DNA of 64,000 nt, from contig JBFXEM010000001.1 of the NCBI GenBank assembly GCA_050180135.1, forward strand, positions 2,667-66,666. The letters are read 5' to 3'. A program made the position numbers and the translations under genes. Position 1 is the stretch's first letter, and every line of letters starts with the position of its first letter. The notes beneath the pieces are model-generated. The model was not told the DNA's origin. It saw nothing but the letters and a program-made list of their open reading frames with translations, and did no database searches. Positions 17,350 to 38,222 of this stretch are shown here, piece after piece. The stretch comes from Solirubrobacterales bacterium (lineage in GTDB: Bacteria > Actinomycetota > Thermoleophilia > Solirubrobacterales > 70-9).

Positions 17350-18557
17350 AGCTTCTTGTAGTTGGATTTGAAGTCCGTGGTTCCGTACCACGATTCTTCG
17401 CTTGCATCGAGGTCGATTTCGTCGAGGTTTTCCTCGGTGAACATCCGCAGCGGAATGTTCTCGTCGTCGACGGGAGGCTGGCCGGAAAGGACACGGAGCG
17501 ACTGGTCCGCAAGCCCCCAGCCCAGCCAGGTGTACGCGCCGCCGACATCGGCGGCCATGGTGTCACCCTGGGCCATCATTTCCACTACGGCCGGGGTGGC
17601 GTTCAGGCTCACTACCCTGACGTCCGGTTTATTCGCCTGTTCGACGGCCGGCACCACGGTGATCGCCATGCCGTCGTAGAGCGGCATCAGGTATTTCGCA
17701 TCGGGATTCGAAAGCAGCGTCGACCGCGTCAGCGTCGGCAGACGCTTTCCCCAGTCGGCGATTGCCACGTTTTCGATGTTGAAGTCACAGTCCGGGCAGA
17801 GCTCGTCGAACTCGTTTTCGATACCCGCGAGCTCGTCTTCGCCGCTGGTCACTTCTTCGGAGACGAAGATCGTGCCCTTCGCATCCCCCTCGCTGTCGGC
17901 GATCACGTAGTCGGCCATCAGCGCGCCGGCGCATGAGTAACAGGACGTACCGGAAGCGGCGACGGTCGGCAGCTGGACCTTCCCGGGGTCGCCGTTGATC
18001 GCTTCGATCACTTTGACACCGGCACGATCGGCGTCGGCGACGGCGCCCGCGACGAGTTTGGGAGAGATCGACATCAGGACGACCGCGTCGTAGTTCTGCG
18101 AGATCGCCGTTTCCATCCCGCGGTTGAATTCCGACACCTGGCCCTTACCGTCGAACAGGTCGACCTGAACGCCGCCTTCTTTGGCGCCTTCGGACATCGC
18201 GTTGTAGATGTTTTCGACCACGGGGATCTTCGCGTCTACCGCGATGTAGAGAACTTTTTTGCCATCCGCTTTCTTCGCATCGAAGGCCGGGCCCGGCTGT
18301 TCCCATTTCGGTTCGACCATCGCCGCCTGCAGCCGTTCCCTGGCGGTCTCCACCGCGGAGTCGCCGCCGCCTTCGCTCGAACTGGTGCCTTCGGATCCAG
18401 CCGTCTCCGAGCCGGAGCTGCCCGAATCCGAATCGCTCGAGCCGCAGGCCGCGAGAAACAGCACAGTCAGAAGCGCCATCAGCGCGAGCAAAGTGCGGTA
18501 GGCGCCGGTCCTGCGCCGACTGGCTCGGGGAACGCCCCTCTTATCGGTGTTCGACAT
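17334..18557 (-). CDS. ABC transporter substrate-binding lipoprotein (type I periplasmic-binding fold, sugar-family), copy A
   Basis: Lipobox 'FLAACGSSDS', Ser/Gly linker, PBP-like body. ATG 18557 follows AAAGGAGAGA. Confidence 0.85.
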   Translation of the reverse strand: MSNTDKRGVPRASRRRTGAYRTLLALMALLTVLFLAACGSSDSDSGSSGSETAGSEGTSSSEGGGDSAVETARERLQAAMVEPKWEQPGPAFDAKKADGKKVLYIAVDAKIPVVENIYNAMSEGAKEGGVQVDLFDGKGQVSEFNRGMETAISQNYDAVVLMSISPKLVAGAVADADRAGVKVIEAINGDPGKVQLPTVAASGTSCYSCAGALMADYVIADSEGDAKGTIFVSEEVTSGEDELAGIENEFDELCPDCDFNIENVAIADWGKRLPTLTRSTLLSNPDAKYLMPLYDGMAITVVPAVEQANKPDVRVVSLNATPAVVEMMAQGDTMAADVGGAYTWLGWGLADQSLRVLSGQPPVDDENIPLRMFTEENLDEIDLDASEESWYGTTDFKSNYKKLWQVE

Positions 18558-18640
18558 CAATCTCTCCTTTTGGTTTGACTTTCGGCCTTCCCAGGCCGGA
18601 CGGCTTCATCCACGTCTTCGGCTTTCCCGTAACCGAACTG

Positions 18641-19552
18641 TCAGCCGCCCGCGCGAGCGCGGGCGACGAGCTTCGCGAACGTGACTGCGATGATCAGCGA
18701 GGCGCCGTAGAAAAACTGTTCGACCCAGCCGATCGCTCCGAGGAGCTGCAGTCCGGTAATGCCGGTGACCAGGAAGTAGACGGCCACGAACGCACCCCAG
18801 GGGTTGAATCGCCCTGGGACGATGGCGGTGGCGCCGAGGTATGCGGCAGCGAAGGCCGGCAGCAGGTAGCTGGGGCCGACACTGGGATCCGAGCCCCCCA
18901 AGGTTCCGGCCAGGACAACGCCGGCGAGAGCGGCGAAGAAGCCGGAGAAGACGAGTGACCCGACGCGTAGCTGGTCGACGCGCAGACCGGTCAGACGACC
19001 GACCTCGCGACCGGCGCCGACGAAGTAGAGATAACGCCCAAGGGGCGTGTACGAGTACACGTACCAGATGAGGATGGTCAGGAACAAGCCGAACCAGAAG
19101 GCCATCTGAATCCCGAGGAACTGGTCGCGGGCGAGTTCGACCAGTCCGCGATCAATGCCACTGATGGTCGAGTTCTCCACGCCAATTGCGATCCCGGCGA
19201 GCAGGGTCCCCATGCCGAGCGTGACGACCAAGGACTCGACCCCGACGACGACGACGAAGAAGGCGTTGATGAAGCCGACGACGATTCCTGCCAGCAGGGC
19301 GATCAACACCGCGAGCACGATCGGCCAGCCCATGGTCACGTTGAGCCAGCCGACCAGGGTGAGCGAAAGGCCGAGCATGCCGGCGACCGACAGGTCGTAC
19401 TCCCCGGCGCTCAGAGGAACGATCAAGCTGAGAGTGAGGATCAGCAGCACCGCCTGGGACCCAAAGATGGTCTGGAAGTTCGAGGCGGTGAGAAACGTGT
19501 CCGGCTTGAGGATGCCGAAGATCGCGATCAGGGCGATCCAGGCCAGCACCAA
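18641..19552 (-). CDS. ABC transporter permease (RbsC/AraH-like), copy A; TTG start directly at TM1
   Basis: Hydrophobic 303 aa, colinear with 48370..49422. The upstream frame is closed by TAG (19616-19618), with no ATG or GTG before the TTG at 19552. Confidence 0.8.
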   Translation of the reverse strand: MVLAWIALIAIFGILKPDTFLTASNFQTIFGSQAVLLILTLSLIVPLSAGEYDLSVAGMLGLSLTLVGWLNVTMGWPIVLAVLIALLAGIVVGFINAFFVVVVGVESLVVTLGMGTLLAGIAIGVENSTISGIDRGLVELARDQFLGIQMAFWFGLFLTILIWYVYSYTPLGRYLYFVGAGREVGRLTGLRVDQLRVGSLVFSGFFAALAGVVLAGTLGGSDPSVGPSYLLPAFAAAYLGATAIVPGRFNPWGAFVAVYFLVTGITGLQLLGAIGWVEQFFYGASLIIAVTFAKLVARARAGG

Positions 19553-19670
19553 GGCGAACCGGTAGCTGAAGTCGACGACGATTTTCCGGCGAGCGGGCGC
19601 GGAAGGCTCGCTCTGCTACGGTTCGTTTGTTGGCGCGGTTGTAGCCAAGTTCACTGTTGTCTATTCCCCT

Positions 19671-19772: not shown

Positions 19773-20636
19773 TTAGGCGTAGCTGTACAAGCCGCGGTTC
19801 GCCTTCCTGCCGTTCAGCCCGGCGGAAACCAGACGCTGCAGGAGCGGCGGCGGGGCGAAGAGCTGCTCGCGATGCTCGGCGTAGAGCGTCTCCGCCACGC
19901 CCATCACGGTGTCGAGCCCGATCAGGTCCGCGAGGGCAAGTGGCCCCATCGGGTGGGCACAGCCCTCGACCATCCCCTTGTCGATGTCCTCTGCGGAAGC
20001 CAGGCCCTGTTCGAGCATGCGGATCGCGGACAGCAGGTAGGGGATCAGCAGCGCGTTGACGGTGAAGCCGGCCCGGTCGGGAGCGACGATCGGGTCCTTG
20101 CCCAACCGGTCACGGGCAAAGGTGGATGCGCGCTCGACCGCCCGTGGGGCAGTCAGCAGCGACGGGATCACCTCGACCAGCGAGAGCACCGGCACCGGGT
20201 TGAAGAAGTGGAGGCCGAGGACCTGCGGCGCCCGGTCGCCAACCACGCTGCCGAGCTCGACGATCGGGATCGAGGAGGTGTTCGAGCAGAGCAGCGCGTC
20301 GGGGGACGTGACGATCTCACTCAGGGCCCGGAAGACGCCGAGCTTGACCCCCTTGTTCTCGACGACGGCCTCGACCACGAGATCGCGGTCGGCGAGATCC
20401 TCCAGCGTGTCGCCCGTCCGCAACCTCGCGAGCGCGGTCCCGACCGTGGCCGCCTCGAGCTTGCCGCGGTCGACCGCCTTGTTCAACGACCTCTCGATTC
20501 GGCTGCGAGCGGCCGTGGCGGCCCCCTCGTCGGCCTCAACGAGGACGACGTCGAGGCCGGCGCGGACACAGACCTCGGCGACCCCGGAGCCCATGATGCC
20601 GCCGCCGACCACCCCGACCTTGTCGATCTCCGCCAT
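19773..20636 (-). CDS. hbd: 3-hydroxybutyryl-CoA dehydrogenase (3-hydroxyacyl-CoA dehydrogenase, NAD-binding)
   Basis: 'VGVVGGGIMGSGVAEV', 'HFFNPVPVLSLVEVIPS', 'MGPLALADLIGLD'. 287 aa. Confidence 0.9.
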   Translation of the reverse strand: MAEIDKVGVVGGGIMGSGVAEVCVRAGLDVVLVEADEGAATAARSRIERSLNKAVDRGKLEAATVGTALARLRTGDTLEDLADRDLVVEAVVENKGVKLGVFRALSEIVTSPDALLCSNTSSIPIVELGSVVGDRAPQVLGLHFFNPVPVLSLVEVIPSLLTAPRAVERASTFARDRLGKDPIVAPDRAGFTVNALLIPYLLSAIRMLEQGLASAEDIDKGMVEGCAHPMGPLALADLIGLDTVMGVAETLYAEHREQLFAPPPLLQRLVSAGLNGRKANRGLYSYA

Positions 20637-20650: not shown

Positions 20651-21085
20651 TCAGGCGCCGGCCTGCTCGTCGACGCCGTCGACGATGAACTTGATGATGT
20701 CCTCGGTGCGGGTGCCGGGGCCGAACACCTCGGTCACACCGACCCGCTTCAGCTGCGCCGCGTCCTCCTCGGGAATCGTGCCGCCGACCAGGAAGAGCAC
20801 GTCCTCGCGATCGTTTTCGCGCAACAGCGTGCAGAGGTCTTCCGCGTACTCCATGTGGGCGCCGGAGAGGCTGGAGAGTCCCAGCACTTGGGCGTCCTCT
20901 TGAATCACCGCGCGCAGGATCGACTCCGGCGTCTGGAAGATGCCGGTGTAGACAACCTCCATCCCGGCGTCGCGCAGGGAGCGGGCCACGACCTTGGCGC
21001 CACGGTCGTGGCCGTCGAGTCCGGGCTTGGCGACGACGACCTTGATCGGCGGGGCCTGGGGGCTGCTGGTGGTTGAACCACTCAT
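20651..21085 (-). CDS. B12-binding small subunit of split acyl-CoA mutase, copy A
   Basis: Real start ATG 21085 after AAGGAG. '[34 protein letters not shown]' carries the DxHxxG cobalamin motif. 144 aa. Confidence 0.9.
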   Translation of the reverse strand: MSGSTTSSPQAPPIKVVVAKPGLDGHDRGAKVVARSLRDAGMEVVYTGIFQTPESILRAVIQEDAQVLGLSSLSGAHMEYAEDLCTLLRENDREDVLFLVGGTIPEEDAAQLKRVGVTEVFGPGTRTEDIIKFIVDGVDEQAGA

Positions 21086-21105
21086 GTCGGTTCTCCTTTC
21101 GTGAC

Positions 21106-22790
<1,685 letters not shown>

Positions 22791-22803
<13 letters not shown>

Positions 22804-23696
22804 CTCTTTGCTGCCTCCTCCAGGATCGTTTTGACCGCGCTGCCGAGGTCAAGGTCTTGTTGCGGGATTTCGTCGGCGCAGGAACGGGTCCAGGCCTCCG
22901 CGATCAGCGCCGCCTCCCGGGCGCGCTTGTGTGCTCGCAGCTCGTCGATGCCGCCGTCGCTCTGCAGGCGCTGCCAGCGCTCGTCGACCGCGGTCCGAAA
23001 CTCGTCGACCCCCACCCCTTCGGTGGCGATCGTGGTCGTCACGTAGAACTCGCGGCCAAGGGTGAGGCGCAGGTGGCGGACCGTCTCCGGGGCGCCAGGG
23101 CGGTCGGCCATGTTGACGACGACCATGTCGGCGACCTCCATCAGGCCGGCCTTGATCGCCTGCACCGCGTCGCCGAGGCCCGGCACCGTGACCAGGGCGA
23201 TCGTGTCGGCGAGCTCGGCGATCGCGACCTCGGTCTGCCCGGCGCCGACCGTCTCGATCAGGATCACGTCGAAGGAGCCGGAGAGCTCGAGCAGGCGGGC
23301 GACGTTGCGGGTGGCGCCGGCGATCGCACCATGCGATCCGCGGCTCGCGAGGCTGCGCACGAAGACGTCTTCTCGTCCCATCAGGTGGGTCTCCATCCGC
23401 AGCCGGTCGCCGAGTACGGCGCCGCCGGTGATCGGGCTCGAGGGGTCGATCGCCAGCACCGCGACCCGCGCCCCCGCCTCCGAGTAGGACTCGATCAGGC
23501 GCCCGGTCAGGGTGCTCTTGCCGGCGCCCGGGGGCCCGGTGATCCCGACCACGTGGACCGGCAGCTCGGGTGGCGGCAGCGTGACCTGCCAAGGCGGGCT
23601 GTTCTCGATCCGGGTTATGGCTCGTGCGAGCGGGCCCCAACCGCCACTGGTGGCGTGCTTCTCCAGCAACGCCTGAAACTCAGTTTGCCCGTACAA
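22791..23696 (-). CDS. meaB: MeaB/ArgK-type G-protein chaperone for the mutase, copy A
   Basis: TTG start at 23696 by alignment with copy B. P-loop '[18 protein letters not shown]'. Overlaps the ligase by 17 nt and the mutase by 13 nt. Confidence 0.85.
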
Positions 23697-25182
23697 GTTC
23701 GATCTCCCCGTCGAGGATCTGCTGGCGGATGACGGCCTTCGCCGACTTGCCGATTCCGGTCGAAGGCAACTCCTCGACGACGGCTGCGCCAGACGGGCGC
23801 TTGAACGACGCGAGGTCGCGGCGGCAGTGCTCGAGGATCGCCGTGGCATCGAGCTCGCTTCCGTTCGCCGGAACGACGACGACCACCGGCGTCTCACCCC
23901 AGCGCTCGTCGGGGATACCGACGACGGCAGCGGTGGTGACCGCGGGGTGCCGGCAGGCGACGGCCTCGATCTCGGCCGGCGCGATGTTGAGGCCGCCGCT
24001 GATGATCAGGTCCTTGAGGCGGCCGGTCAGATAGACGCGACCGTCCTCGTCGAATCGTCCGATGTCGCCGGTCCGCATCGCCCCATCAGGCATCCGCGCC
24101 GACGCCGTCGCCTCGGGGTCGCCGAGGTAGCCGAGCATCTTCGAGGGGCTCTTGCAAGCGAGCTCCCCGGCTCCACCGTCGAGGATCTCCCCGCCCTTCT
24201 CGTCGATCGCGATCAGCCCAGAGCTGGGAAAGGGAACGCCGACTGAACTCGGGACCTGGCGCAGGAGACGGTCGCTGGCGGCGGTGATCGTCAGCAGCTC
24301 GGTCATGCCGTAGAACTGGTGCGTCTCCACGTCCGGCAGGGCGTCCCACCACCGTTCGAGCAGGCTGACGGGCATCGGCTCGGAGGCGAACGACACCCAG
24401 TGAAGCCCGGCCAGATCCTCGTGCGGGGCCTGGTCGAGCAACCTCGCCATCACGGTTGGGACCGCGTTCAGGGCCGTCGCCTCGCGAGCCGCTCTGGCGA
24501 CCCGCTCGGCGTCGAAGCCGGGCAGCACGTCGAGCGCGCCGCCGGTGCAGAGCGTTGGCAGCACCTGCTCCGGAACCGAGGCGTAGAAGGGAAGAAATGC
24601 GACGTTGCGGTCGCGGGGGCCGAACGGCAGCCCTGCGGCCATCTGCAGAGCCGCGTGAAGCAGCGTCCCCTGCGAATGAACGACACCCTTGGGGCGGCCG
24701 GTGCTGCCGCTGGTCAGGAGGATGCAAGCGGGTGAGCTTGGCCCGAGGCGGGGAAGGTAGCCCGACCTGCCGGCTGGCAGCTTGTCGAGCGACCAAACCG
24801 GGAGCTCCTCGGCGATCGTCTCGCGCACCTCGCCGTCGACCTTGCCGGCAATCAAGCCGCTGGCCTCGACCAGCGCGAGCTGCTCGCGCGTCGCGCCGGC
24901 GTCGAGCATCGCGTTGATCGGGACGACGACGCAGCCGGCGCGCATGATCCCGAAGTAGGCCGCGAGGTAGGCCGGCTCGTTCGCGCCCAAGAGCGCAACC
25001 CGGTCGCCCTGGGCAAGACCGAGATCCTTCGTCAGGTGCTGGGAAATATTCCCGGCGCGCTCCCAGAGCTCCCCATAGGTCCAGACGACACCGTCGCCGA
25101 TGACCGCCGGCCAGCTCGACTGCGCCCGGGCGACGGCGGCGATCCAAGCGACCAGCGTCTGCGGCGTCCTCGCTGCGCTCAC
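23680..25182 (-). CDS. AMP-forming acyl-CoA ligase (ANL superfamily), copy A
   Basis: GTG 25182 lies 1 nt after the upstream TGA. 'ILLTSGSTGRPKGVVHSQ', 'FYGMTE', 'TGDIGRFDEDGRVYLTGRLKDLIISGG'. Confidence 0.85.
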   Translation of the reverse strand: MSAARTPQTLVAWIAAVARAQSSWPAVIGDGVVWTYGELWERAGNISQHLTKDLGLAQGDRVALLGANEPAYLAAYFGIMRAGCVVVPINAMLDAGATREQLALVEASGLIAGKVDGEVRETIAEELPVWSLDKLPAGRSGYLPRLGPSSPACILLTSGSTGRPKGVVHSQGTLLHAALQMAAGLPFGPRDRNVAFLPFYASVPEQVLPTLCTGGALDVLPGFDAERVARAAREATALNAVPTVMARLLDQAPHEDLAGLHWVSFASEPMPVSLLERWWDALPDVETHQFYGMTELLTITAASDRLLRQVPSSVGVPFPSSGLIAIDEKGGEILDGGAGELACKSPSKMLGYLGDPEATASARMPDGAMRTGDIGRFDEDGRVYLTGRLKDLIISGGLNIAPAEIEAVACRHPAVTTAAVVGIPDERWGETPVVVVVPANGSELDATAILEHCRRDLASFKRPSGAAVVEELPSTGIGKSAKAVIRQQILDGEIELVRAN

Positions 25183-25183: not shown

Positions 25184-26014
25184 TCAGCTCGCCTTGTTGT
25201 CTCGGGTCGTGGTGGAGACGACGATCGTCGCGCTCGCACGGGCTGCCAGGATCGGCTCGCTGGCCTGAAGCTTTCCCTGCTCGTCGACCGAAGCGACCTT
25301 GTGGATCTCGGCGGCAATGCGCCGGCTGCTGCGACCGCGCTCGACGACTCGGGCCCGGCCTTCGATGAAGTCACCGACCCGCAGCGGCGCCAGGAACTCG
25401 ACCATGTCGTAGGCGACGCAGAGACCCTCGTCACCGCCCTCGCGCAGCGCCAGCTCGGTCTCGAGATCGGCGAAGATCTCCATCGATTTCGAGCCAGCCG
25501 CGATCCCACCGGCGTAGCGGGCGTCGGCGGGGGCGAGCCGCAACCTGATCACCGACTCGAACTCATCGGTCGAGCTGGGTGCCACGTCTTGGCTCTGGGT
25601 CAAGGTGCCGCCTTGGCTCCCGGCCGTCGCGAGCCCCTCGATCTCGACCTGAGCGCCGCCGATCAGACCGCTGACCTCGACCAGCGTCGAGGCCGGGTAG
25701 TGGCCGTGCAACCGAGCCCGAAAGCAAGTGCCGATGTCCGCAAGGGCAGCTGAGTAGGCCGCCAGATCGGTGACGAAGGTCCGCAGGTGCAAGAGGTCTC
25801 CGGGGTTACCGCCGATTTCCTCCAGGCTGGCGATTACCTTCGCGAGGGCCGAGTCGAACTCGGCGGTGAAGCCCTCCTTCGCCTCGATGACTTCTGGCTT
25901 GGCGGTGTGCCCAGCTAGTGCGATCACCTTCCCCGCACGGGCGGCCCGGTTGTAGCCGGGCTGCGGGCCAGCGAGGGTTACGGCAGATTGGCGATGCGTG
26001 TACTGGTTGTCCAT
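25184..26014 (-). CDS. RidA/YjgF-like domain fused to a hotdog-fold domain (resembles 3-aminobutyryl-CoA ammonia-lyase / thioesterase fold), copy A
   Basis: N-terminal half: '...LRTFVTDLAAY...YPASTLVEVSGLIGGAQVEIEGLA' (RidA pattern). C-terminal half: 'IRLRLAPADARYAGGIAAGSKSMEIFADLETELALREGGDEGLCVAYDMVEFLAPLRVGDFIEG'. Confidence 0.7.
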   Translation of the reverse strand: MDNQYTHRQSAVTLAGPQPGYNRAARAGKVIALAGHTAKPEVIEAKEGFTAEFDSALAKVIASLEEIGGNPGDLLHLRTFVTDLAAYSAALADIGTCFRARLHGHYPASTLVEVSGLIGGAQVEIEGLATAGSQGGTLTQSQDVAPSSTDEFESVIRLRLAPADARYAGGIAAGSKSMEIFADLETELALREGGDEGLCVAYDMVEFLAPLRVGDFIEGRARVVERGRSSRRIAAEIHKVASVDEQGKLQASEPILAARASATIVVSTTTRDNKAS

Positions 26015-26481: not shown

Positions 26482-26484
26482 CCG

Positions 26485-27048
26485 ATGGCTGCGATCAATC
26501 TCACCCGGATCTACACGCGCCTCGGCGACGGCGGCGAGACCCACCTGGGCGACATGAGTCGCGTCCCCAAGACGCATCCACGACTCGAGGCCTACGGAAC
26601 GATCGACGAGCTGAACGCGCACGTCGGCGCGGCGATCGCCGGCGGCGGACTGAGCGAGGAGCACGCGCGTTGGATGGCGCGCATCCAGAACGATCTGTTC
26701 GACCTCGGCGCGGACCTCTCGCTGCCGCCAACCACCGAGGGCGAGCAGAAGCTCCGGGTACTGCCGTCGCAGACCGAATGGCTCGAGGGTTGCTGCGACG
26801 AGGCCAACTCTGACCTCGAGCCCCTGCGCTCATTCGTCCTTCCCGGCGGCAGTCCCGCCGCGGCCGCCCTTCATATCTGCCGCACGGTCTCCCGTCGGGC
26901 CGAGCGGCGAGCGATCCTCGTCGAGGATGGGAATCCCGAGGTCGTCCGCTATCTCAATCGCCTCTCGGACCTTTTCTTCATCCTCGCTCGCGTCGCGAAC
27001 GCGGGCGGAACCGAACCGCTCTGGCAGCCCGGCGCGTCTCAGGACTGA
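26485..27048 (+). CDS. pduO: PduO-type ATP:cob(I)alamin adenosyltransferase
   Basis: 'IYTRLGDGGETHL', 'EAYGTIDELNAHVG', 'FVLPGGSPAAAALHICRTVSRRAER'. Confidence 0.9.
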   Translation: MAAINLTRIYTRLGDGGETHLGDMSRVPKTHPRLEAYGTIDELNAHVGAAIAGGGLSEEHARWMARIQNDLFDLGADLSLPPTTEGEQKLRVLPSQTEWLEGCCDEANSDLEPLRSFVLPGGSPAAAALHICRTVSRRAERRAILVEDGNPEVVRYLNRLSDLFFILARVANAGGTEPLWQPGASQD

Positions 27049-28100
27049 ACCACGGGGAGGGGAATCTCGTCGGCGACCGGCGCGAAATGCCGCGCCACCA
27101 TCGGCTCCGAAACCGCTGCAAGGCTGGTTGGATCCCAGCGCGGACGCCGGTCCTTGTCGACGAGCACCGCGCGGATCCCCTCGGGTAGGTCGTGCGTCGA
27201 TAGGAAGGCGCTGGAGACGCGGAAGTCCTGCTCCAGGCATTCCTCCACCGCCGCCATCGAGCGCGCCCGTCGAATCGCCTCGAGCGTCACCTTGAGCGCG
27301 AGCGGCGACATCAAGCCGATCTCCGCGGCCGCCGCATGCGCCGCTGGGTCCGGGTGCCGCTCGAGCGCGGCGACGATTCCCTCAACCGAGTCGTGGGAGT
27401 AGCACGAGTCGATCCAAGCCTCTCTCGCCGGCAATGTCAGTTCATCCGACTCCCCGTCGACAGGGGCCGGTCGCAAGCTTCCCAAAGCCGCCTCGACGTC
27501 GCCCGCACTCAGCGCCTCCACCAGAAGATGGTGAGCCTCAGTTGGTGCGATGGCGTCCGCCAGCCCGCAGTGGATCGCATCGCGCGCGCCGATCACCTCT
27601 CCCGTGAGCGCGAGGTGGATCCCGGACTCGCCCGGTGCCCTCGCCAACAGGAAGGATCCACCGACGTCGGGGGCGAGGCCGATCTTCACCTCCGGCATGG
27701 CGATCGCGGCGCCAGGCACGACGAGACGATGGCTGGCATGCCCGGCCAAGCCGATCCCCCCACCCATCACGACCCCCTCCATGAGCGCGACGATCGGCTT
27801 CGGGTAGCGCGCGATCCGCGCGTTGAGTTCGTACTCCCGACGCCAGAACTCGCGCGCCACCTGTGGTTCGCCGGCCCGAATCGAATCGCGGACCAGGATT
27901 ACATCGCCGCCGGCGCAGAAGCCGCGCTGGCCCGCTCCCCGCAGGAATACGCACGAGACCTCGTCGTCGCGCCGCCAATCCTCCAGGGCGCCCGTCAGCG
28001 CCTGCACCATCGCGAGGCTGAGGGAGTTGATCGCCTCTGGGCGGTTGAGGGTCAGCACCCCGAGTCGCCCTGCCCTCTCCACAATGACCTGTTCCGTCAT
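27039..28100 (-). CDS. enoyl-CoA hydratase/isomerase superfamily, 3-hydroxyisobutyryl-CoA hydrolase-like (ECH_2)
   Basis: 'VFLRGAGQRGFCAGGDV', 'ALMEGVVMGGGIGLAGH', and a ~350-aa length with the C-terminal helical extension typical of HIBCH-like proteins. Confidence 0.85.
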   Translation of the reverse strand: MTEQVIVERAGRLGVLTLNRPEAINSLSLAMVQALTGALEDWRRDDEVSCVFLRGAGQRGFCAGGDVILVRDSIRAGEPQVAREFWRREYELNARIARYPKPIVALMEGVVMGGGIGLAGHASHRLVVPGAAIAMPEVKIGLAPDVGGSFLLARAPGESGIHLALTGEVIGARDAIHCGLADAIAPTEAHHLLVEALSAGDVEAALGSLRPAPVDGESDELTLPAREAWIDSCYSHDSVEGIVAALERHPDPAAHAAAAEIGLMSPLALKVTLEAIRRARSMAAVEECLEQDFRVSSAFLSTHDLPEGIRAVLVDKDRRPRWDPTSLAAVSEPMVARHFAPVADEIPLPVVQS

Positions 28101-28196
28101 CCGGAAAGTGACCCTATCGCTTATCCCTTTGCGGCCTAAGGTGCTGGGACTTTCGTGCGCGGTTTAGGGACCCGCGGGACCGATACGATCTTCTCC

Positions 28197-29183
28197 ATGC
28201 AAACCATCCGGCTGAACACGGTTACCGGCGTTCCGGTCTTCAGGCAGATCATCGAGCAGATCACCTACATGATCGAGATGGGTCAGCTGAACAACGGCGA
28301 CCGGCTGCCCAGCAGCCGGATGCTGGCCGACAACCTGCACGTCAACCGCAACACCGTCGCCCGCGCCTACGGCGAGCTTCGCAACCGCGGCCTAGTCAGC
28401 CGCCAGGGGCGCCACGGGATGGTCGTCCGCTCGGCTGAGAGCGCCCGCGAGCGGATGGCCGCCCGCGAGAGCGCCCACGCGATCCTCGGCACCGCGGTCA
28501 CCCGCTGCATCGAGCTTGGCCTGCCAGCCGAGGAAATCGCCTCGCTCGCCTACCAGCAGAGCCTCCACGCCGAGCGGACCGAGGTCCAGCTCTCCTTCGT
28601 CGAGTGCAACGTCGAGCGCGCCGACGCCTTCGCCGCCGAGCTCGGCGGAGCGCTTGAGGCGCCGATCAACCCCCTCGTCCTCGGCTCAATCGACGCCACC
28701 GACGTGCGGGGGCAGGATCTCGTCATCACCACCTTCTTCCACCTCTCCGAAGTCCGCCGCCTGGTCCGCGAGCTGGCGCCCGAGGATCCGCCCGAGGTGC
28801 TGGCGATCGTCGTCGCCCCACACGTGAAAACGCTAGTGCGGCTGAGCCAAATCCCCGCCGACCACCGGATCGGGATCTACTACACGACCGACGACCAGGC
28901 GCAGGCGCTGCGCCAGTCGCTGACCGACACCGGGGTGACGGAGATCGACGTGATCTCCGGCCCCGACGACCCGGCGATCGCCGGCTGCGACCTGGTGATC
29001 GTGCCGAGCGAGAGCCCCGAGCTGGCCAAGGAGCTCGACGGCAAGGTGCCGCTGCTCGAGTACGGCAACGTGCTCGACGCCGGCTCGATCAAGATGGTCT
29101 CCGACGTGGTCGACGAAGTCCGCGAGCGCAAGGGCGACGTCGGTGGCGTCACCGCGACCGAGGACCTCGTCACCCAATCCTGA
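28197..29183 (+). CDS. GntR-family regulator with a large uncharacterised C-terminal domain
   Basis: ATG 28197. wHTH 'GDRLPSSRMLADNLHVNRNTVARAYGELRNRGLVSRQGRHG'. Divergent from the HIBCH-like gene. Confidence 0.8.
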   Translation: MQTIRLNTVTGVPVFRQIIEQITYMIEMGQLNNGDRLPSSRMLADNLHVNRNTVARAYGELRNRGLVSRQGRHGMVVRSAESARERMAARESAHAILGTAVTRCIELGLPAEEIASLAYQQSLHAERTEVQLSFVECNVERADAFAAELGGALEAPINPLVLGSIDATDVRGQDLVITTFFHLSEVRRLVRELAPEDPPEVLAIVVAPHVKTLVRLSQIPADHRIGIYYTTDDQAQALRQSLTDTGVTEIDVISGPDDPAIAGCDLVIVPSESPELAKELDGKVPLLEYGNVLDAGSIKMVSDVVDEVRERKGDVGGVTATEDLVTQS

Positions 29184-29420: not shown

Positions 29421-29921
29421 ATGAGCGCCGAAGCACCGAGATCCAACGCCCTGCCCGAGCCCGTGCGGCGCGTCGCCGACGCGCTCGAAGCGGTCGGCCT
29501 CGCCGCCGAGATCCGCCTCGTCGACAAGCGCACCCACACCGTCGAGGAGGCGGCGAGCGCGCTCGGGGTCGAGCCGCGGCAGATCGTCAAGTCGATGGTC
29601 TTCCGCGGCCGGCGGGAGGACCGGCTGGTGCTGGTCGTGCTCGCCGGCGACCGCCAGGTCGACCTCGCCAAGGTCACCGCCAAGCTCGGCGAAAACGTCG
29701 TCCGCGCCGACCCCGACTGGGTCCGCGAGCGGACCGGCTTCGCCATCGGCGGCATCCCGCCGCTCGCCCACGCAACCCCGGCGACCGTCCTCGTCGACGC
29801 CGGCATCCCCGGCGACGACGACCTCTGGGCTGGCGCCGGAACCTCCCGCGCCCTCTTCCGCGCCAGCGGCCACCAACTGCGCGTGGCCATCGGCGGCACT
29901 GTCGCCGACGTCGGCTGCTAG
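29421..29921 (+). CDS. YbaK/ProX-type aminoacyl-tRNA deacylase domain protein, copy 2
   Basis: 'THTVEEAASALGVEPRQIVKSMVF...LVVLAGDRQVDLAKV...TGFAIGGIPPLAH...LWAGAGT'. Colinear with 10071..10556. Confidence 0.8.
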   Translation: MSAEAPRSNALPEPVRRVADALEAVGLAAEIRLVDKRTHTVEEAASALGVEPRQIVKSMVFRGRREDRLVLVVLAGDRQVDLAKVTAKLGENVVRADPDWVRERTGFAIGGIPPLAHATPATVLVDAGIPGDDDLWAGAGTSRALFRASGHQLRVAIGGTVADVGC

Positions 29922-29935: not shown

Positions 29936-31330
29936 CTAGACGAACGCCCGTGCCGCCTCGCCGATTGCCTGGTCAAGGATCTCGAGCCCTTGAGCGAGCT
30001 GCGCTGGGGTCGTGGTCAGTGCAGGGGCGAGCCGCAGGGTGCCGCCGAGGTCGCCGCCGAGCTGGACGACATTGACGTGCAGACCGAGGTCGAGGCAGCG
30101 GGCGGTGACCGCGGCGCCGAGCTCGGGCGCCGCGGCCTTCGTCTCCGGGTCGAGGACGAACTCGAGCCCCAGCATCAGGCCGCGGCCGCGGACGTCGCCA
30201 ATCACCGCGTGGCGCATCTTCAGTTCGTTCAGCCCGCCGGCCAGCTGGGCGCCCTTGACCCGCACCTGCGCCGCCATCTCCTCGCGCTCGAGCACGTCGA
30301 GCACGGTGTTGCCGACGGCGGCGGCGAGCGGGTCGGAGACGTGGGTGGTGAAGAAGAGGTAGCCGAGCTCGTGCCCGCGCTGCTCGATCTCGGCGCTGGT
30401 AATGACGGCGGCCACCGGCAGCCCCGCCCCGAGCGTCTTCGAGAGGGTGAGGACGTCTGGGACGAAGCCCTCCGCTTCAAAGGCGTACATCGCGCCTGTG
30501 CGACAGAGGGCGGTCTGCGCTTCGTCGAGGATCAGCAGCATGCCGCGCTCGTGGCACTTGCGCTGCAGCGCCGCCAGGTAGCCGCGGGGCGGGACGATCA
30601 CGCCGCCGCTCGAGAGGATCGGCTCGACGATGCAGGCGGCGAGGCTGCCGCACGACTCCTGGTCGATCTGGGCGAAGCTGAATTCGAGCTGCTCCTGCCA
30701 GTCGAGCTGGCCGTGGGCGTCGGTGAAGTCGGGGCGGTAGCCGTAGGGGGTCGGGATCGCGAAGTTGCCCGGGACCGAGGGGCCGTAGCCGCGGCGCGGG
30801 GTCGAGTAGGTGGCGTTGGCGACGCCGAGCGTCATCCCGTGCCAGGAGCGGCTGAAGGAGACGACCTCGTGCTTGCCGGTGACCAGCTTTGCCAGCCGCA
30901 GCGCCGCCTCGTTCGACTCGGCCCCGGTGCTCAGCAGCAGCACCCGCTCGAGCGGATCGGGCAGCGACTCGGCGAGGCGGCGCGAGAGCTCGACCACCGG
31001 CCGGCTCAGCATGCCGCTAAAGAGGTGCGAGAGGTTCTCGCTTGCGGTCCGGACGATGGCGGTGATCGCCGGGTGCGAGTGGCCCAGGATCGCGCTCATC
31101 TGGCCCGAGGTGAAGTCGAGCACCTCGCGGCCGTCGTTGAGGTGGAGGACGCTGCCCGCGGCCCGCTCGACGATCACAGGCGAGAACGAGGAGGTGTAGC
31201 GGAGGACGTGGCGGCCGGCTTCGGCCCAGAAGTCGGCGTCATCGGAGGTGCCGATGGGCGCGGCGGTGGCGGTGGACGGGACGGGAGCGATTGCAGTCGG
31301 GTTGGTCATGGGCACCACGCTAGGCGTCAT
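29936..31330 (-). CDS. dgdA: 2,2-dialkylglycine decarboxylase (pyruvate)-like class-III PLP aminotransferase
   Basis: Long blocks match the recalled Burkholderia DGD sequence: 'LDFTSGQMSAILGHSHP', 'HLFSGMLSRPVVELSRRLA', 'LLLSTGAESNEAALRLAKLVTGK', 'SWHGMT', 'EPILSSGGVIVPPRGYLAALQRKCHERGMLLILDEAQT', 'LTLSKTLGAGLP', 'HELGYLFFTTHVSDPLAAAVG', 'IGDVRGRGLMLG'. An alternative start is ATG 31309. Confidence 0.85.
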   Translation of the reverse strand: MTPSVVPMTNPTAIAPVPSTATAAPIGTSDDADFWAEAGRHVLRYTSSFSPVIVERAAGSVLHLNDGREVLDFTSGQMSAILGHSHPAITAIVRTASENLSHLFSGMLSRPVVELSRRLAESLPDPLERVLLLSTGAESNEAALRLAKLVTGKHEVVSFSRSWHGMTLGVANATYSTPRRGYGPSVPGNFAIPTPYGYRPDFTDAHGQLDWQEQLEFSFAQIDQESCGSLAACIVEPILSSGGVIVPPRGYLAALQRKCHERGMLLILDEAQTALCRTGAMYAFEAEGFVPDVLTLSKTLGAGLPVAAVITSAEIEQRGHELGYLFFTTHVSDPLAAAVGNTVLDVLEREEMAAQVRVKGAQLAGGLNELKMRHAVIGDVRGRGLMLGLEFVLDPETKAAAPELGAAVTARCLDLGLHVNVVQLGGDLGGTLRLAPALTTTPAQLAQGLEILDQAIGEAARAFV

Positions 31331-31384: not shown

Positions 31385-32290
31385 ATGCTCGACCCTCGCC
31401 GCCTCCGCCTGCTCGTCACCCTGGAGTCGCTCGGGACCGTCCGCGCCGTCGCCGCCGCGGTTTCGATGAGCCCCTCGGCGGTCTCGCAGCAGCTCGGCGT
31501 GCTCGAGACCGAAAGCGGGATCAAGCTGCTCGAGCGGCACGGCCGCTCGGTCCGCCTGACCCCCGCAGGCCATGCGCTGGCGGCCAGCGGGGTCGAGATT
31601 CTCGACCGGATCGCCAGTGCCGAAGAGGAGCTGCGGGCCTGGCAGGGAGCCGCCGGGGTTGTCCGAGTCGGCACCTTCACCAGCGCCCTCACCGCCTTCG
31701 TCATCGCGGCGGCCGGGCGGGTCGAGGCCGCCCACGAGGGCTTGCGGGTCAGCCTCAGCGAGCTGCCGCCGGAGCTACTCGTGCAGTCACTGGCGCGGGG
31801 CGAGGTCGACCTCGCCGTGGTCGGCGACTACGGCGACGGCTCGAGCCCCTACCCGGCCGAGCTCGACCTGACGCCGCTGGTCACCGACCGCCTGCTGGCG
31901 ATCCTCCCCGCCGGCCACCCGCTCGCCGGCGAGGTCGTCACCTTCGAGCAGTTGCGCGGCGAGCGCTGGCTGCTCGACGGCACCGACCTCGAGCGCCACG
32001 TCGTCGCCCAGTGCCGCCGCGCCGGCCTCGAGCCGGCGGTCGCGGGCCGGATCGCCAGCCACGTGCCGCTGATGCAGGCGGTCGCGGTCGGGCTCGGGGT
32101 GACGGTCCTGCCCTCGCTGGCGGTCGAGCCGCGGCCGGCCGGGGTGGTGAGCTGCCCGCTGGAGCCGGCCAGCGGCCGCAACCTCGCGGTCCTGGTCCGC
32201 CCCGAGGCAGCGCGGCGCGACTCGATAGTCGTCGCCCGCGAAGCGATCGTCGCCACCGCCGAGGAGAAGTTGGCCCGCCTCCGGGCTTGA
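31385..32290 (+). CDS. LysR-family regulator divergent from dgdA (DgdR-like arrangement)
   Basis: ATG 31385. 'LRLLVTLESLGTVRAVAAAVSMSPSAVSQQLGVLETESGIKLLERHGRSVRLTPAG'. 54-nt divergent intergenic region. Confidence 0.85.
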   Translation: MLDPRRLRLLVTLESLGTVRAVAAAVSMSPSAVSQQLGVLETESGIKLLERHGRSVRLTPAGHALAASGVEILDRIASAEEELRAWQGAAGVVRVGTFTSALTAFVIAAAGRVEAAHEGLRVSLSELPPELLVQSLARGEVDLAVVGDYGDGSSPYPAELDLTPLVTDRLLAILPAGHPLAGEVVTFEQLRGERWLLDGTDLERHVVAQCRRAGLEPAVAGRIASHVPLMQAVAVGLGVTVLPSLAVEPRPAGVVSCPLEPASGRNLAVLVRPEAARRDSIVVAREAIVATAEEKLARLRA

Positions 32291-32414
32291 TGTGCATCTG
32301 TACATGAAATGGCCTACTTCCTAGCCCTGCAGGCGATCGTCGTCGAGGCCTTCGCGCCGTCCCCGAGCCGGGTGTAGATCCGCGTCAGGTTGCCTCGTTC
32401 CACCTCGATAACGC

Positions 32415-32840
32415 CTAGCGGCTCGGCGCGTTCTGGACGATGAACGAGATGATGTCTTCGGTCCGGGTGCCGGGGCCGAAGACCTCGGTGACGCCTACCT
32501 GTTTCAGTGCCTCCGCGTCCTCCTCGGGGATCGTGCCGCCGACCAGGAAGAGGACGTCTGAGCGGTCGCTCGCGGCCAGCAGCTTGCAGAGGTCCTTGGC
32601 GTACTCCATGTGGGCGCCGGAGAGGCTCGAGAGTCCGAGAACCGCCGCGTCCTCCTGGATCACCGCCCGCAGGATCGAGTCCGGGGTCTGGTAGATGCCG
32701 GTGTAGACGACCTCCATCCCGGCGTCCCGCAGGGCGCGGGCGACGACCTTGGCGCCGCGGTCGTGGCCGTCGAGCCCCGGCTTGGCGACGATCACCTTGA
32801 TCGGCGGGGCTTGGGTCCCGCCGGCGGTTGGGCTGGTCAT
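32415..32840 (-). CDS. B12-binding small subunit of split acyl-CoA mutase, copy B
   Basis: '[34 protein letters not shown]'. 141 aa. Colinear with 20651..21085. Confidence 0.9.
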
Positions 32841-32862: not shown

Positions 32863-34560
32863 CTAGAAGACCGTCGAGGGCTGGTAGAGGCCCCAGGCGT
32901 TGCGGAGGACGTCGGTGATCTCTTCGACCGTGGCCCGGGCGCGGACCGCCTCCTCGATCTCCGGCATCCGGTTGTGGTGCAGGTCGCCGGCCACCGCCTC
33001 GAGCTCGCGCAGCGCTTGCGCGACCCGTTTCTCCTCGCGGGAGGCCTTCACTTCCTTCAGCCGCTTGATCTGCCGCTCCCCGACCCCGGGGTCGGGGCGG
33101 AAGAGCTCGACGCCCCCGGTCGAGCGGTCGTCGTCGACGAACTCGTTGACACCGACCGTGATCCGGTCGTTCGACTCGAGCGCGATCTGCTGTTCCCAGG
33201 CGGAGTCGGCGATCAGCTGGTTCGCGTAGCCGGTTTCGATCGCCGGGATCATGCCGCCCATCTCGTCGATCCGCTTGATCAGCTCGAGCGCTTCCTCCTC
33301 GATCCGCGAGGTCAGCGACTCGATGTAGTACGAGCCCCCGAGCGGGTCGACGACGTCGGCGACACCGGTCTCGTGCAGGATCAGCTGCTGGGTCCGGACC
33401 GCGACCTTGATCGCTTCCTCGGAGGGGATCGCGAAGGCCTCGTCGAGCGAGTTGGTGTGCAGCGACTGGGTGCCACCGAGGATGCTCGCCAGCGCCTGGA
33501 TCGCGGTCCGGGCGACGTTGTTGAGCGGCTGCTGCGCGGTCAGCGAGACGCCCGCAGTCTGGCAGTGGGCCCGCATCAGCCAGGAGCGCGGATCGGTGCA
33601 CTTCAGCCGCTCGCGGGTCAGGCGCGCCCAGAGGCGACGGGCGGCCCGCATCTTCGCGATCTCCTCGAGGAAGTCGTTGTGGACGTCCCAGAAGAAGGAG
33701 ACCCGCGGCGCCAAGGTGTCGGGGTGGATGCCGCGTTCCTGCCCCAGTTCGAGGTAACAGAGGGCGGCGCTGAGGGTCAGCCCGACCTCCTGCACGGCGG
33801 TCGCCCCGGCGTCGCGGATGTGGTACCCGCAGGCGTTCAGCGGGTTGAAGCGGGGCATCACCTTGGCGCCGTACTCCATCGTGTCGACGACCAGCTCGGC
33901 CGCTTTCGCGGGCGGGAAGATGAACTCGTTCTGCGCGGTGTACTCCTTGAGGATGTCGTTCTGCGTCGTGCCGGTCAGCTGGCTGCCGGCGATTCCGCGT
34001 TCGTCGCCGACCACCCGGTACATCGCCAACAGGATCGCCGCCGAGGCGTTGATCGTCAGCGAGGTCGAGACTTCCTCCAGCGGGATCCCGTCGAACAGGG
34101 CGTGGAAGTCGACGACGGTGTCGACGGCGACGCCGATCTTGCCGATCTCGCGGTGGTACTCGGGATGGTCGGAGTCGTAGCCGAGCAGGGTCGGCAGGTC
34201 GAAGTCGGTCGAGAGCCCGGTCTCGCCGTGGGCGAGCAGGTACTTGTAGCGGCCATTGGTGTCCTCGGCCTGCCCGAAGCCGGCGACCTGGCGGATCGTC
34301 CACGGCCGGCCGCGATACATGCTCGCGTGGGGGCCGCGGGTGAAGGGGTACTCGCCCGGCAGGCCGATGTCCTTGACCGGGTCGATGTCCTTGACGTCGT
34401 CCTCGGTGTAGACGTCGTCGATGTCGAGGCCGGAGAGCGTTTTGAACTCCTCGCGCCGGGGGGATATGCGCTCGTAATCCTTGCTGAGTCGCTCCTCCTT
34501 CCACTTCTCGACGCGGTCGGACTTGGTGGCTGGCTTCTTGACTGCGTTTACGTCGTCCAT
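32863..34560 (-). CDS. acyl-CoA mutase large subunit (ICM/HCM-like), copy B
   Basis: '[32 protein letters not shown]...[18 protein letters not shown]', '[17 protein letters not shown]'. 565 aa, the same length as copy A. Confidence 0.9.
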
Positions 34561-37744: not shown

Positions 37745-37924
37745 TTCAGGCTGTCTCCAATCGTTCTCTGGTCGTCATCTGACGGTCCCCCAACGGGACA
37801 CCGAAAGTGGCAGGACTTTGTCGTCATTTGTGTCCTGTCAAGTTGTTCGACTTTTATCATAGATCGGTAGGTCATAACATACCCACCCCTTCTTACCTAG
37901 CCCTTCTGGTGGATCGCCGAGCCG

Positions 37925-38222
37925 TCACGACGGCGGCATCCGCAGGGCGCCGTCGGTGGACGACCTCTCCGTTCGACCGCGATCCGCAGCGGGCCGGGCT
38001 CGGCGGCCGTGGCGACCGCACTCTCGGCCGAGGCGGCGTCGGCCACGTCGACCTCGACCGGCAGGCCGTCGAGGTCCTCGGCGAGTCTCGCAGCGCGATC
38101 CACCGCCAGGTCGGCGACCACGACCTCGGCGCCCTTCTCGGCGAGGCGGCGAACGGTCGCCGCCCCCAGCCCAGCCCAGAGGCGTCGCCGAAAACGACGG
38201 CCACTGTTCGCCTCATCTTCAT
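37925..38222 (-). pseudogene. remnant of a type-II 3-hydroxyacyl-CoA dehydrogenase-like SDR (paralog of 51944..52702) with a frameshift and a large internal deletion
   Basis: 'MKMRRTVAVVFGDASGLG' then, in another frame, 'AATVRRLAEKGAEVVVADLAVDRAARLAEDLDGLPVEVDVADAASAESAVATAAEPGPLRIAV'. This is joined directly to the C-terminal 'NGEVV..DGALRMPPS*'. About 150 central codons, including the YxxxK region, are missing. Confidence 0.7.

Follow-up and report, generated by a model that had tools for sequence, protein, structure and literature searches.

An ammonia-lyase-like hotdog protein, in some lineages fused to a Rid-like domain, heads a B12-dependent acyl-CoA mutase cassette with a possible role in dialkylglycine catabolism

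The window analysed here is a 64,000-nucleotide stretch of contig JBFXEM010000001.1 (assembly GCA_050180135.1) from a Solirubrobacterales bacterium, and it carries two operons with the same gene order on the minus strand: a gene that fuses a Rid-like domain to a hotdog-fold domain, followed by genes for an acyl-CoA ligase, a MeaB-type GTPase, the large subunit of an acyl-CoA mutase and its B12-binding small subunit. Comparison of the fusion gene with its relatives and their neighbourhoods in other genomes places its hotdog half in the family of beta-aminoacyl-CoA ammonia-lyases that includes Kal and Acl, and the lyase-like gene marks an unstudied clade of mutases that is probably dedicated to dialkylglycine catabolism.

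Both fusion genes, whose proteins are 66% identical, stand at the coordinates given in a preliminary description made from the sequence alone; they are read from the minus strand, the plus-strand frames at both sites being broken by many stops. The GC content at third codon positions (0.80 in copy 1 and 0.88 in copy 2) is as for real genes in this window of 68% GC, and an alternative, longer open reading frame (ORF) of copy 1, from a GTG, extends to 26080. Pfam placed Ribonuc_L-PSP in the N-terminal ~120 residues (E 9e-14 in copy 1 and 5e-15 in copy 2) and 4HBT in the C-terminal ~115 residues (E 2e-6); in copy 1 these matches span residues 19–130 and 186–239, and the NCBIfam Kal model spans residues 153–266. 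An AlphaFold2 model of copy 2, built with 42 homologues, had a mean predicted local distance difference test (pLDDT) of 89 with both domains confident; the hotdog was mostly above 90 across residues 145–258, and the sole low-confidence stretch was the Ser/Thr/Ala/Pro-rich linker (approximately residues 122–144, with pLDDT <50 at 132–140). The predicted template-modelling score of the single-chain model was 0.57 because the mutual arrangement of the Rid and hotdog domains is undefined. Pfam, for both copies, and the model of copy 2 agree with the layout first described, a YjgF/RidA-like N-terminal domain joined to a hotdog domain by a Ser/Thr/Ala-rich linker, and the hotdog core peptide IRLRL.PADARYAGGIAAGSK.MEIFADLETELALREGGDEGLCVAYDMVEFLAPLRVGDF.EG can be read in both translations. 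The junction sequences also bear out to the letter the 1-nt spacing between the stop of the fusion gene and the start of the ligase gene, which reads ...TGA g GTG in operon 1 (25186–25180) and ...TGA g ATG in operon 2 (36946–36940).

The preliminary description had likened the hotdog half to Kal more than to typical thioesterases, and the searches came out the same way. The best curated model was NF052388 (3-aminobutyryl-CoA ammonia lyase; E 3.5e-29 for copy 1 and 1.4e-27 for copy 2), whereas the YciA thioesterase model reached an E of only ~1e-4. The best solved structure by sequence was 4MTU, the beta-alanyl-CoA:ammonia lyase of Clostridium propionicum (E 2e-9), which was also the top Foldseek match (root-mean-square deviation 1.8 Å over 123 columns, 29% identity, template-modelling (TM) score normalised to the target 0.73), so that a check on whether the C-terminal half scores as a thioesterase without lyase similarity was answered in favour of the lyases. 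When 1.84 billion cluster representatives were searched exhaustively, the family proved to be small, with 502 representatives at E ≤1e-3, and 34 columns of a 122-member alignment were at least 80% conserved; the window hotdog carries the family consensus in 28 of these, including R148, R150, D155, Y158, G165, D174, T177, E178, GDEGL185–189, Y193, F198, P201, GD205–206, E209, S221 and R222. A YciA/4HBT-type thioesterase that releases the rearranged acid or proofreads misloaded CoA esters, with the Rid domain as a passenger, would be consistent with the generic 4HBT assignment, which is all that Pfam sees, with the weak YciA match and with the hexameric architecture that Acl and YciA have in common; however, the E-values of the Kal model are some 25 orders of magnitude below that of YciA, a lyase gives the best match by fold, the family-specific conserved residues are kept, and a thioesterase coupled translationally to a CoA ligase would waste ATP, all of which make this a very improbable reading.

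Within the family, the hotdog half is best placed as a divergent clade of beta-aminoacyl-CoA ammonia-lyases and not as Kal itself, because its score lies below the cut-off for Kal, three motifs are changed and lysine-fermentation genes are lacking in the scanned ORFs. The NF052388 scores (101.6 bits for copy 1 and 96.4 for copy 2) fall short of the 160 bits set as the equivalog cut-off; the range is 93–110 bits among other members of the mutase-linked clade and 120–172 among classical Kal relatives. Compared with the characterised lyases (classical Kal and Acl2), DAHY has become DARY, DVATE has become DLETE and DGDEGL has become GGDEGL (H157R, A176E and D184G), so that the His of DAHY and the Asp of DGD(E/I), common to the two characterised enzymes, are absent in the window clade and a Glu has been gained. 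Identity to the Fusobacterium and Acetoanaerobium homologues is ~38–40%. Kal is reportedly the 3-aminobutyryl-CoA ammonia-lyase of anaerobic lysine fermentation (Kreimeyer et al. 2007). The window clade shares with it the hotdog family, the best-scoring model and, in the scheme proposed below, 3-aminobutyryl-CoA as substrate and crotonyl-CoA as product; it differs in its sub-cut-off score, in the three substitutions, in the Rid-like domain carried by a subset of its members, in its constant association with a CoA ligase and a B12-dependent mutase, and in its occurrence in aerobic soil Actinomycetota and Chloroflexota rather than in anaerobic fermenters. Classical lysine fermentation was ruled out by the missing pathway genes and by the aerobic-type actinobacterial host: in a search for kamA, kamDE, kdd and kce, no Kce/BKACE, aminomutase or radical-SAM protein was found in the scanned ORFs of the window, of which a few stretches were left unscanned, or of the related loci. 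Acl1/Acl2 of C. propionicum (4MTU/4MZQ) likewise provide the best solved structure by sequence and fold, but they serve beta-alanine fermentation with a CoA-transferase, and Acl2 has the DAHY and DGD motifs that are changed in the window clade.

No member of the hotdog clade was found on plasmids in PLSDB, where the best match had ≤40% identity; Streptomyces plasmid hits of a Kal-like kind (H34, H38) are annotated just as 'holo-ACP synthase'. Fusions to holo-ACP synthase (P0185, P0230, P0182, P0196) or to 3HCDH (P0136) occur among remoter Kal-like hotdog domains.

In a genome survey with one genome per species, 29 loci with the hotdog domain were recovered, from Actinomycetota (Solirubrobacterales, Gaiellaceae, Streptomyces, Jiangella, Longivirga, Dactylosporangium, Sphaerisporangium, Nocardioides, Nonomuraea, Haloechinothrix and Mycobacteriales) and from Chloroflexota, including Limnocylindrales and Anaerolineaceae. 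The hotdog gene was the first gene, directly upstream of the same ligase, in all 29, and of the 27 loci on contigs that are long enough, 25 then continue with the large and small mutase subunits. The two exceptions, in Dactylosporangium (L018, 10001–13370) and Sphaerisporangium (L021), keep the hotdog, ligase, MeaB and small-subunit genes, and no large subunit was found within 10 kb in either. Further metagenomic and Streptomyces examples show the same cassette order. The tight coupling to the ligase and the first position in both mutase operons, noted earlier for the window, therefore extend to 29 other genome loci, and we propose that the hotdog domain serves as a dedicated partner for B12-dependent acyl-CoA mutases of a distinct, uncharacterised clade.

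Two further observations were made on cassette structure. On one metagenomic contig (L035, 1–9919) a second, different set of small-subunit, large-subunit and ligase genes lies directly upstream of the Rid–Kal cassette, accompanied by a thiolase, a class-III aminotransferase, an M24 peptidase and HyuA/B. In two Solirubrobacteraceae metagenome-assembled genomes (MAGs) (L036 9492–13183, P0093 and P0094) a stand-alone hotdog ORF continues out of frame into the ligase, and the ligase and mutase genes are broken up; these run-on ORFs are probably long-read frameshift errors and not true fusions.

The linked mutases form a single clade, with at least 67% identity within it, 47–49% identity to HcmA (4R3U) and 45% to human MUT, and public sources name its members generically only. 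HcmA 4R3U was the best solved structure for the large subunit of operon 1 (584 bits). All 31 clade members aligned have Val at the position of HcmA Ile90 and Asp at that of HcmA Asp117, a pair that we take to be part of the substrate site, and the window mutase has Gln at what is presumably, from the printed alignment, the position of Arg207 of methylmalonyl-CoA mutase. No residue difference that would tell the substrates of the operon 1 and operon 2 mutases apart was found in the aligned clade. The clade mutase was not found on plasmids in PLSDB, where no plasmid-borne mutase exceeded 52% identity.

The N-terminal half has the expected Rid fold. Pfam PF01042 scored 51.9 and 56.1 bits, above the gathering score of 27.3 in both copies, and many RidA structures were matched (TM scores ~0.7–0.85, normalised to the target). 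The domain shares with RidA the Pfam family, the fold and the GQ, VTD and PAxT-VEV motifs, and the Glu of VE(I/V)E is kept, but it lacks the deaminase Arg: both window copies have Ser in place of the catalytic residue (Arg105 of E. coli RidA, in the PAR(S/A) motif), Ser100 aligning with the Arg of 6L8P, 3K0T and E. coli RidA, and alternate rows of a 42-protein alignment have Ser, Thr, Met, Ala, Leu or Val in this column, never Arg. The scores against TIGR00004 (RidA), 26.4 and 35.6 bits, are well under its cut-off of 106. The nearest free-standing relatives and those fused to a short-chain dehydrogenase/reductase (SDR) are likewise without the Arg, and the domain is for this reason taken to derive from an Arg-less Rid subfamily; we would place it among Rid4–7 (Niehaus et al. 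2015), Arg-less subfamilies that are said to be without demonstrated deaminase activity.

The Rid domain is dispensable in evolution. The fusion occurs in just 7 of the 29 genome loci; in the other 22 the domain is absent with the remaining cassette genes unchanged, Solirubrobacteraceae with an 83%-identical hotdog carry no Rid domain, and some metagenomic relatives have a shortened one (P0064, P0081). Among the 10 multi-domain proteins scanned, taken from the best 150 of the 502 family representatives, no independent Rid–Kal fusion was found, the partners being ACPS, 3HCDH, BKACE or a second, tandem hotdog. Where present, the domain is under purifying selection (dN/dS 0.2–0.44, compared with 0.14–0.25 for the hotdog domain); its dN is ~2.5-fold that of the hotdog, yet 2.7–4-fold lower than that of the linker.

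A canonical role of the Rid half as an imine/enamine deaminase is not supported by these sequences, and the earlier suggestion of an imine/enamine-quenching RidA coupled to the lyase did not survive the exchange of Arg105 for Ser, the scores of 26–36 bits against 106 and the truncation or absence of the domain in most relatives. Rid proteins are trimers and Acl is a trimer of hotdog dimers, so that in the simplest reading the domain is an accessory that most likely acts as a scaffold, bringing the hotdog domains together as a hexamer (a trimer of dimers), and does not deaminate imines. Catalysis by the Rid domain on a CoA-bound imine or enamine (3-iminobutyryl-CoA or 3-aminocrotonyl-CoA) or on acetone imine, the fusion serving to channel a reactive intermediate that the lyase, the mutase or a neighbouring enzyme would produce, is highly unlikely. 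The Rid fold is modelled with high confidence, the Glu and the purifying selection fit a working domain, and the missing Arg binds the substrate carboxylate in canonical RidA, a group that a CoA thioester does not have; but the Arg position is variable and not re-specialised, the domain is lost or truncated beside an otherwise unchanged cassette, the scan of multi-domain representatives gave no second such fusion, and elimination by Kal/Acl enzymes yields an enoyl-CoA and not an imine.

The features of the window are listed in Table 1.

Table 1. Genes and other features of the 64,000-nucleotide window that bear on the two mutase operons (positions are those of the window)
Feature	Position	Strand	Basis and remarks
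Fusion gene, copy 1	25184–26014	minus	276 aa counted from ATG; translation, Pfam, NCBIfam
Rid-like domain, copy 1	~25625–25960	minus
Linker, copy 1	~25559–25624	minus
Kal-like hotdog domain, copy 1	~25217–25558	minus
Fusion gene, copy 2	36944–37744	minus	266 aa; translation, Pfam, NCBIfam, AlphaFold model
Rid-like domain, copy 2	~37382–37714	minus	followed by disordered linker
Kal-like hotdog domain, copy 2	~36974–37312	minus
AMP-forming acyl-CoA ligase, operon 1	23680–25182	minus	Pfam AMP-binding and AMP-binding_C; GTG start
AMP-forming acyl-CoA ligase, operon 2	35437–36942	minus	Pfam; ATG start
MeaB-type G-protein chaperone, operon 1	22791–23696	minus	Pfam MeaB E 7e-68; start uncertain, longest ORF to 23897
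MeaB-type G-protein chaperone, operon 2	34548–35453	minus	Pfam MeaB E 1e-67; TIGR00750 233.5 bits, slightly below the cut-off of 240.75
Acyl-CoA mutase large subunit, operon 1	21106–22803	minus	565 aa; Pfam MM_CoA_mutase E 8e-198
Acyl-CoA mutase large subunit, operon 2	32863–34560	minus	565 aa; 83% identical to operon 1 subunit
B12-binding small subunit, operon 1	20651–21100 (start approximate)	minus	Pfam B12-binding E 2e-28
B12-binding small subunit, operon 2	32415–32840	minus	141 aa; Pfam B12-binding; TIGR00640 159 bits
3-Hydroxybutyryl-CoA dehydrogenase	19773–20636	minus	Pfam 3HCDH_N and 3HCDH; NF005875 415 bits, cut-off 319
PduO-type cob(I)alamin adenosyltransferase	26482–27048	plus	divergent from operon 1; Pfam Cob_adeno_trans; TIGR00636 174 bits
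ECH_2 crotonase-superfamily protein (3-hydroxyisobutyryl-CoA hydrolase/enoyl-CoA hydratase type)	27039–28100	minus	Pfam ECH_2 E 2e-113
GntR-family regulator	28155–29183	plus	Pfam GntR; a homologue accompanies the cassette in 20 of the 29 genome loci
YbaK/ProX-type aminoacyl-tRNA trans-editing domain protein	29421–29921	plus	Pfam tRNA_edit; 2CX5 E 5e-30
2,2-Dialkylglycine decarboxylase (DGD) orthologue	29936–31330	minus	downstream of operon 2; 1D7R match
Paralogous block 1	10581–19615	minus	downstream of operon 1
Paralogous block 2	40204–49428	minus	upstream of operon 2
SDR divergently paired with the 2-hydroxyacyl-CoA lyase	51944–52750	minus
2-Hydroxyacyl-CoA lyase orthologue	52783–54507	plus	7PT1 E 1e-130; NF058623 613 bits, equivalog cut-off 600

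The sequences upstream of the two operons have no common word longer than 10 nt, hence no shared operator was found, and an Rfam search of the window gave no match and thus no B12 riboswitch. A decayed copy of the 2-hydroxyacyl-CoA lyase/SDR pair lies beside operon 2 (37893–40067): a thiamine diphosphate (TPP)-dependent enzyme gene on the plus strand is split over at least four frames (38288–38506, 38503–38799, 38796–39611 and 39651–40067), and an N-terminal SDR fragment with a frameshift lies on the minus strand (37893–38222). These fragments may be pseudogenes or may stem from errors in the MAG assembly. A 172-aa ORF (31787–32305, minus) that separates the operon 2 small subunit from the DGD gene has no Pfam or NCBIfam match, and a counterpart of 71% identity holds the same position at another locus (L005, 9116–9439). 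A gene for a ParB-like protein (1495–3114, minus) and one for a DDE transposase (60712–62166, plus) flank the catabolic region; together with the duplicated blocks and the pseudogenes they are hints of a plasmid or mobile catabolic island.

Among the neighbours, the DGD orthologue bears on the substrate. It matched 1D7R over residues 3–432 (E 2e-160, 537 bits), the next unrelated match reaching 230 bits, and the THVSD loop of the K+ site is conserved in it, as are all of the residues that we take to form the DGD active site (Gln52, Trp138, Met141, Ser215, Asp243, Gln246, Lys272, Asn394 and Arg406). NCBIfam has no model that names DGD, and only generic 'aspartate aminotransferase family' matches under their cut-offs were obtained. 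The natural substrates of DGD are 2-aminoisobutyrate (Aib) and isovaline, and 7 other loci, from three orders, have a DGD-like gene no more than 10 kb from the cassette. The protein encoded between the regulator and the DGD gene is best matched by 2CX5 (Thermus thermophilus TTHA1699, 'putative trans-editing enzyme'); a trans-editing deacylase recurs by the cassette in five other loci (L005–L008 and L011) and may protect translation from an accumulating small non-protein amino acid.

Each paralogous block encodes an ABC transporter (BPD_transp_2 permease and ATPase), a carbamoylase-family M20 amidase and N-methylhydantoinase-like HyuA/HyuB, with a Peripla_BP_4 protein in block 1. These annotations suggest a module that would convert a hydantoin via the N-carbamoyl amino acid to an amino acid, the source being a hydantoin such as 5,5-dimethylhydantoin; an assignment of the HydA/HydB pairs as acetone carboxylase was ruled out (424 bits to N-methylhydantoinase, 44 to acetone carboxylase). 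Other lineages have instead S58 (DmpA/BapA-type), M19, M24, M14 and S9 peptidases, an amidase and peptide transporters, the S58 peptidases adjoining the cassette in 7 loci. The substrate of the cassette looks like an amino acid, and specifically a dialkylglycine.

Aib and isovaline are abundant in fungal peptaibols and withstand the enzymes that normally deaminate amino acids. The tertiary carbon that bears its amine puts Aib out of reach of transaminases, dehydrogenases and oxidases, and because this amine is at the alpha position a 1,2-shift of the thioester carbon would be needed before ammonia could be eliminated. In the scheme that we tentatively favour, at slightly less than an even chance, the ligase, a new type of B12-dependent mutase and the hotdog lyase would take Aib via aminoisobutyryl-CoA and 3-aminobutyryl-CoA to crotonyl-CoA. 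An alpha,alpha-dialkyl amino acid, most likely Aib and possibly isovaline for the second operon, would be freed from hydantoins or peptides and converted by the ligase to its aminoacyl-CoA; the mutase, assisted by MeaB and the PduO-type adenosyltransferase and binding the ammonium group through the equivalent of HcmA Asp117, would shift the thioester carbon to give 3-aminobutyryl-CoA; the hotdog domain would remove ammonia; and the ECH_2 protein, acting as a hydratase, and 3-hydroxybutyryl-CoA dehydrogenase, both of which fit a crotonyl-CoA product, would lead on to acetoacetyl-CoA. The two operons may differ in substrate (Aib or isovaline) or in stereochemistry. All four universal cassette genes have a role in this scheme. 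The solved structures closest to the operon 2 ligase are of the FadD/feruloyl-CoA synthetase types and nonribosomal peptide synthetase adenylation domains, and the position of the A4 motif, judged by eye, holds Tyr, which is uninformative on an alpha-amino-binding Asp.

Both halves of the chemistry have parallels. Beta-valine, for which the same tertiary-amine argument holds, is degraded by a CoA ligase and a CoA-dependent ammonia-lyase in Pseudomonas sp. SBV1 (BvaA/BvaB; PMC4619459); the BvaB lyases have the crotonase fold and not the hotdog fold, and no mutase takes part because the amine of beta-valine is already at the beta position. The shift itself is carried out on a tertiary alcohol by HcmAB, which converts 2-hydroxyisobutyryl-CoA to 3-hydroxybutyryl-CoA (PMC7176365). 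The DGD route of Burkholderia cepacia has the same presumed substrate class, and its orthologue lies next to operon 2; however, it yields acetone and CO2, whereas the proposed CoA route would keep all four carbons as acetoacetyl-CoA.

Several points weigh against the Aib scheme. The failed equivalog cut-off and the changed motifs of the hotdog clade do so on the side of the lyase, the latter leaving room for an altered leaving group or stereochemistry. DGD already gives another route for Aib, so that a second is not strictly needed, and no mention of a 2-aminoisobutyryl-CoA mutase was found in the searchable literature. The scaffold role proposed for the Rid domain assumes that Acl is a trimer of dimers. 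The remaining points concern the mutase, the dehydrogenase, the 2-hydroxyacyl-CoA lyase and the accessory genes, and they are those on which a hydroxy route would draw. In that route the mutase would be a 2-hydroxyisobutyryl-CoA mutase of the HCM/RCM type and the hotdog protein would have been recruited as a 3-hydroxybutyryl-CoA dehydratase: DGD would convert Aib to acetone, the lyase would work in reverse to join acetone and formyl-CoA to 2-hydroxyisobutyryl-CoA (in a variant, the ligase would activate 2-hydroxyisobutyrate directly), the mutase would form 3-hydroxybutyryl-CoA, and the hotdog protein could, for instance, epimerise an (R)-product via crotonyl-CoA for an (S)-specific dehydrogenase.

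We judge the hydroxy route, the main rival of the Aib scheme, unlikely. The equivalent of HcmA Asp117, found in every clade mutase, would bind a hydroxyl equally well, and HcmA is the best solved-structure match, but the identity to HcmA (47–48%) is no higher than to plasmid mutases (46–52%). The dehydrogenase gene, which lies directly after the operon 1 mutase genes (14 nt downstream of the small subunit), is explained by a hydroxy-mutase without any lyase. The window's 2-hydroxyacyl-CoA lyase, orthologous to the actinobacterial enzyme that splits 2-hydroxyisobutyryl-CoA reversibly into acetone and formyl-CoA, passes its equivalog cut-off and matches 7PT1 (Table 1), and its homologues lie by the cassette in 7 loci, in 4 of them together with DGD; however, ligase and hotdog genes are universal, whereas the lyase and DGD each accompany the cassette in just 7 of 32 loci. 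We know of no natural formate-CoA ligase, and this counts against the route as well. Although the hotdog clade no longer has the His and Asp common to the characterised ammonia-lyases, it keeps acidic and other residues conserved across the family.

The hcm clusters of Aquincola and Methylibium (HcmAB/HCL/MeaH) and that of RcmAB in Kyrpidia have in common with the cassette a ligase, a G-protein chaperone and a two-subunit B12 mutase, as well as the moving of a group off a tertiary carbon. The Methylibium petroleiphilum cluster further shares the accessory set, with a GntR-type regulator, an adenosyltransferase, a TPP-dependent enzyme and 3-hydroxybutyryl-CoA dehydrogenase, and its TPP-dependent protein (L038, 8586–10346) is 44% identical to that of the window. 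In contrast, the window mutase has Val at Ile90 of HcmA and 47–48% identity to it, the ligase is unrelated to HCL of M. petroleiphilum (only short motif matches, the best at 25 bits), and the regulator is not homologous either. An ordinary hcm (2-hydroxyisobutyrate) cluster is weakened as an explanation because neither ligase nor regulator is homologous to those of M. petroleiphilum; it is kept as a rival for the sake of the Asp117 equivalent and the lyase homologue. Known hcm/rcm clusters, moreover, are described without a hotdog gene (PMC7176365), with no Kal-like gene reported at the head of the operon, and the window's neighbours are related to amino acids and not to fuel oxygenates.

The ECH_2 protein and the S58 peptidases raise the question of whether the same logic would apply to another amino acid, for example by conversion of 2-aminobutyryl-CoA to 3-aminoisobutyryl-CoA and methacrylyl-CoA, with subsequent hydration and cleavage by the ECH_2 protein, or with a beta-amino acid released by S58 peptidases. 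The ECH_2 protein passes the 3-hydroxyisobutyryl-CoA hydrolase subfamily model NF004127 (408 bits against a cut-off of 274), S58 peptidases stand by the cassette in the 7 loci given above, and the remodelled hotdog site, like the presence of two paralogous operons, suggests that the substrates differ from the classical (S)-3-aminobutyryl-CoA; but no mutase is needed to deaminate 2-aminobutyrate or ordinary beta-amino acids, and the DGD orthologue and 3-hydroxybutyryl-CoA dehydrogenase point to the Aib skeleton, which leaves this reading quite unlikely. Returning to the Aib scheme, an extended form of it, in which the cassette is a B12-dependent 2-aminoisobutyryl-CoA (dialkylglycyl-CoA) mutase pathway and the Rid domain of the Thermoleophilia would additionally hydrolyse 3-iminobutyryl-CoA leaked from the alpha-amino product radical of the mutase, is possible and somewhat doubtful.

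The fusion was at first thought to be a new domain architecture. It is not unique, since ~85 database clusters carry it; where their names identify an organism, these are Solirubrobacterales, Gaiellaceae and unclassified Actinobacteria MAGs, and the clusters are labelled 'Rid family hydrolase' or '3-aminobutyryl-CoA ammonia-lyase'. No description of the fusion, of the operon or cassette, or of an aminoacyl-CoA mutase was found in the searchable literature. The routes for Aib known to us are that of DGD, a decarboxylation-dependent transamination in which the skeleton is lost as acetone, and a hydroxylase route.

If the Aib scheme is true, the cassette would provide the first acyl-CoA carbon-skeleton mutase with an alpha-aminoacyl thioester as its substrate, working together with an ammonia-lyase dedicated to it, and an amino-substituted substrate would join the methylmalonyl-, isobutyryl-, ethylmalonyl-, 2-hydroxyisobutyryl- and pivalyl-CoA mutase types. 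The enzymes could be used to make or degrade beta- and alpha,alpha-disubstituted amino acids, and the fusion is a natural experiment on the role of an Arg-less Rid domain. As cultured strains of Streptomyces, Jiangella, Longivirga and Nonomuraea carry the cassette, the hypothesis is directly testable. For the small Kal/Acl family the scheme would add a second physiological setting, one apart from anaerobic fermentation, and soil Actinomycetota and Chloroflexota would be able to assimilate all four carbons of Aib (or the skeleton of isovaline) from peptaibols, hydantoins and other sources.

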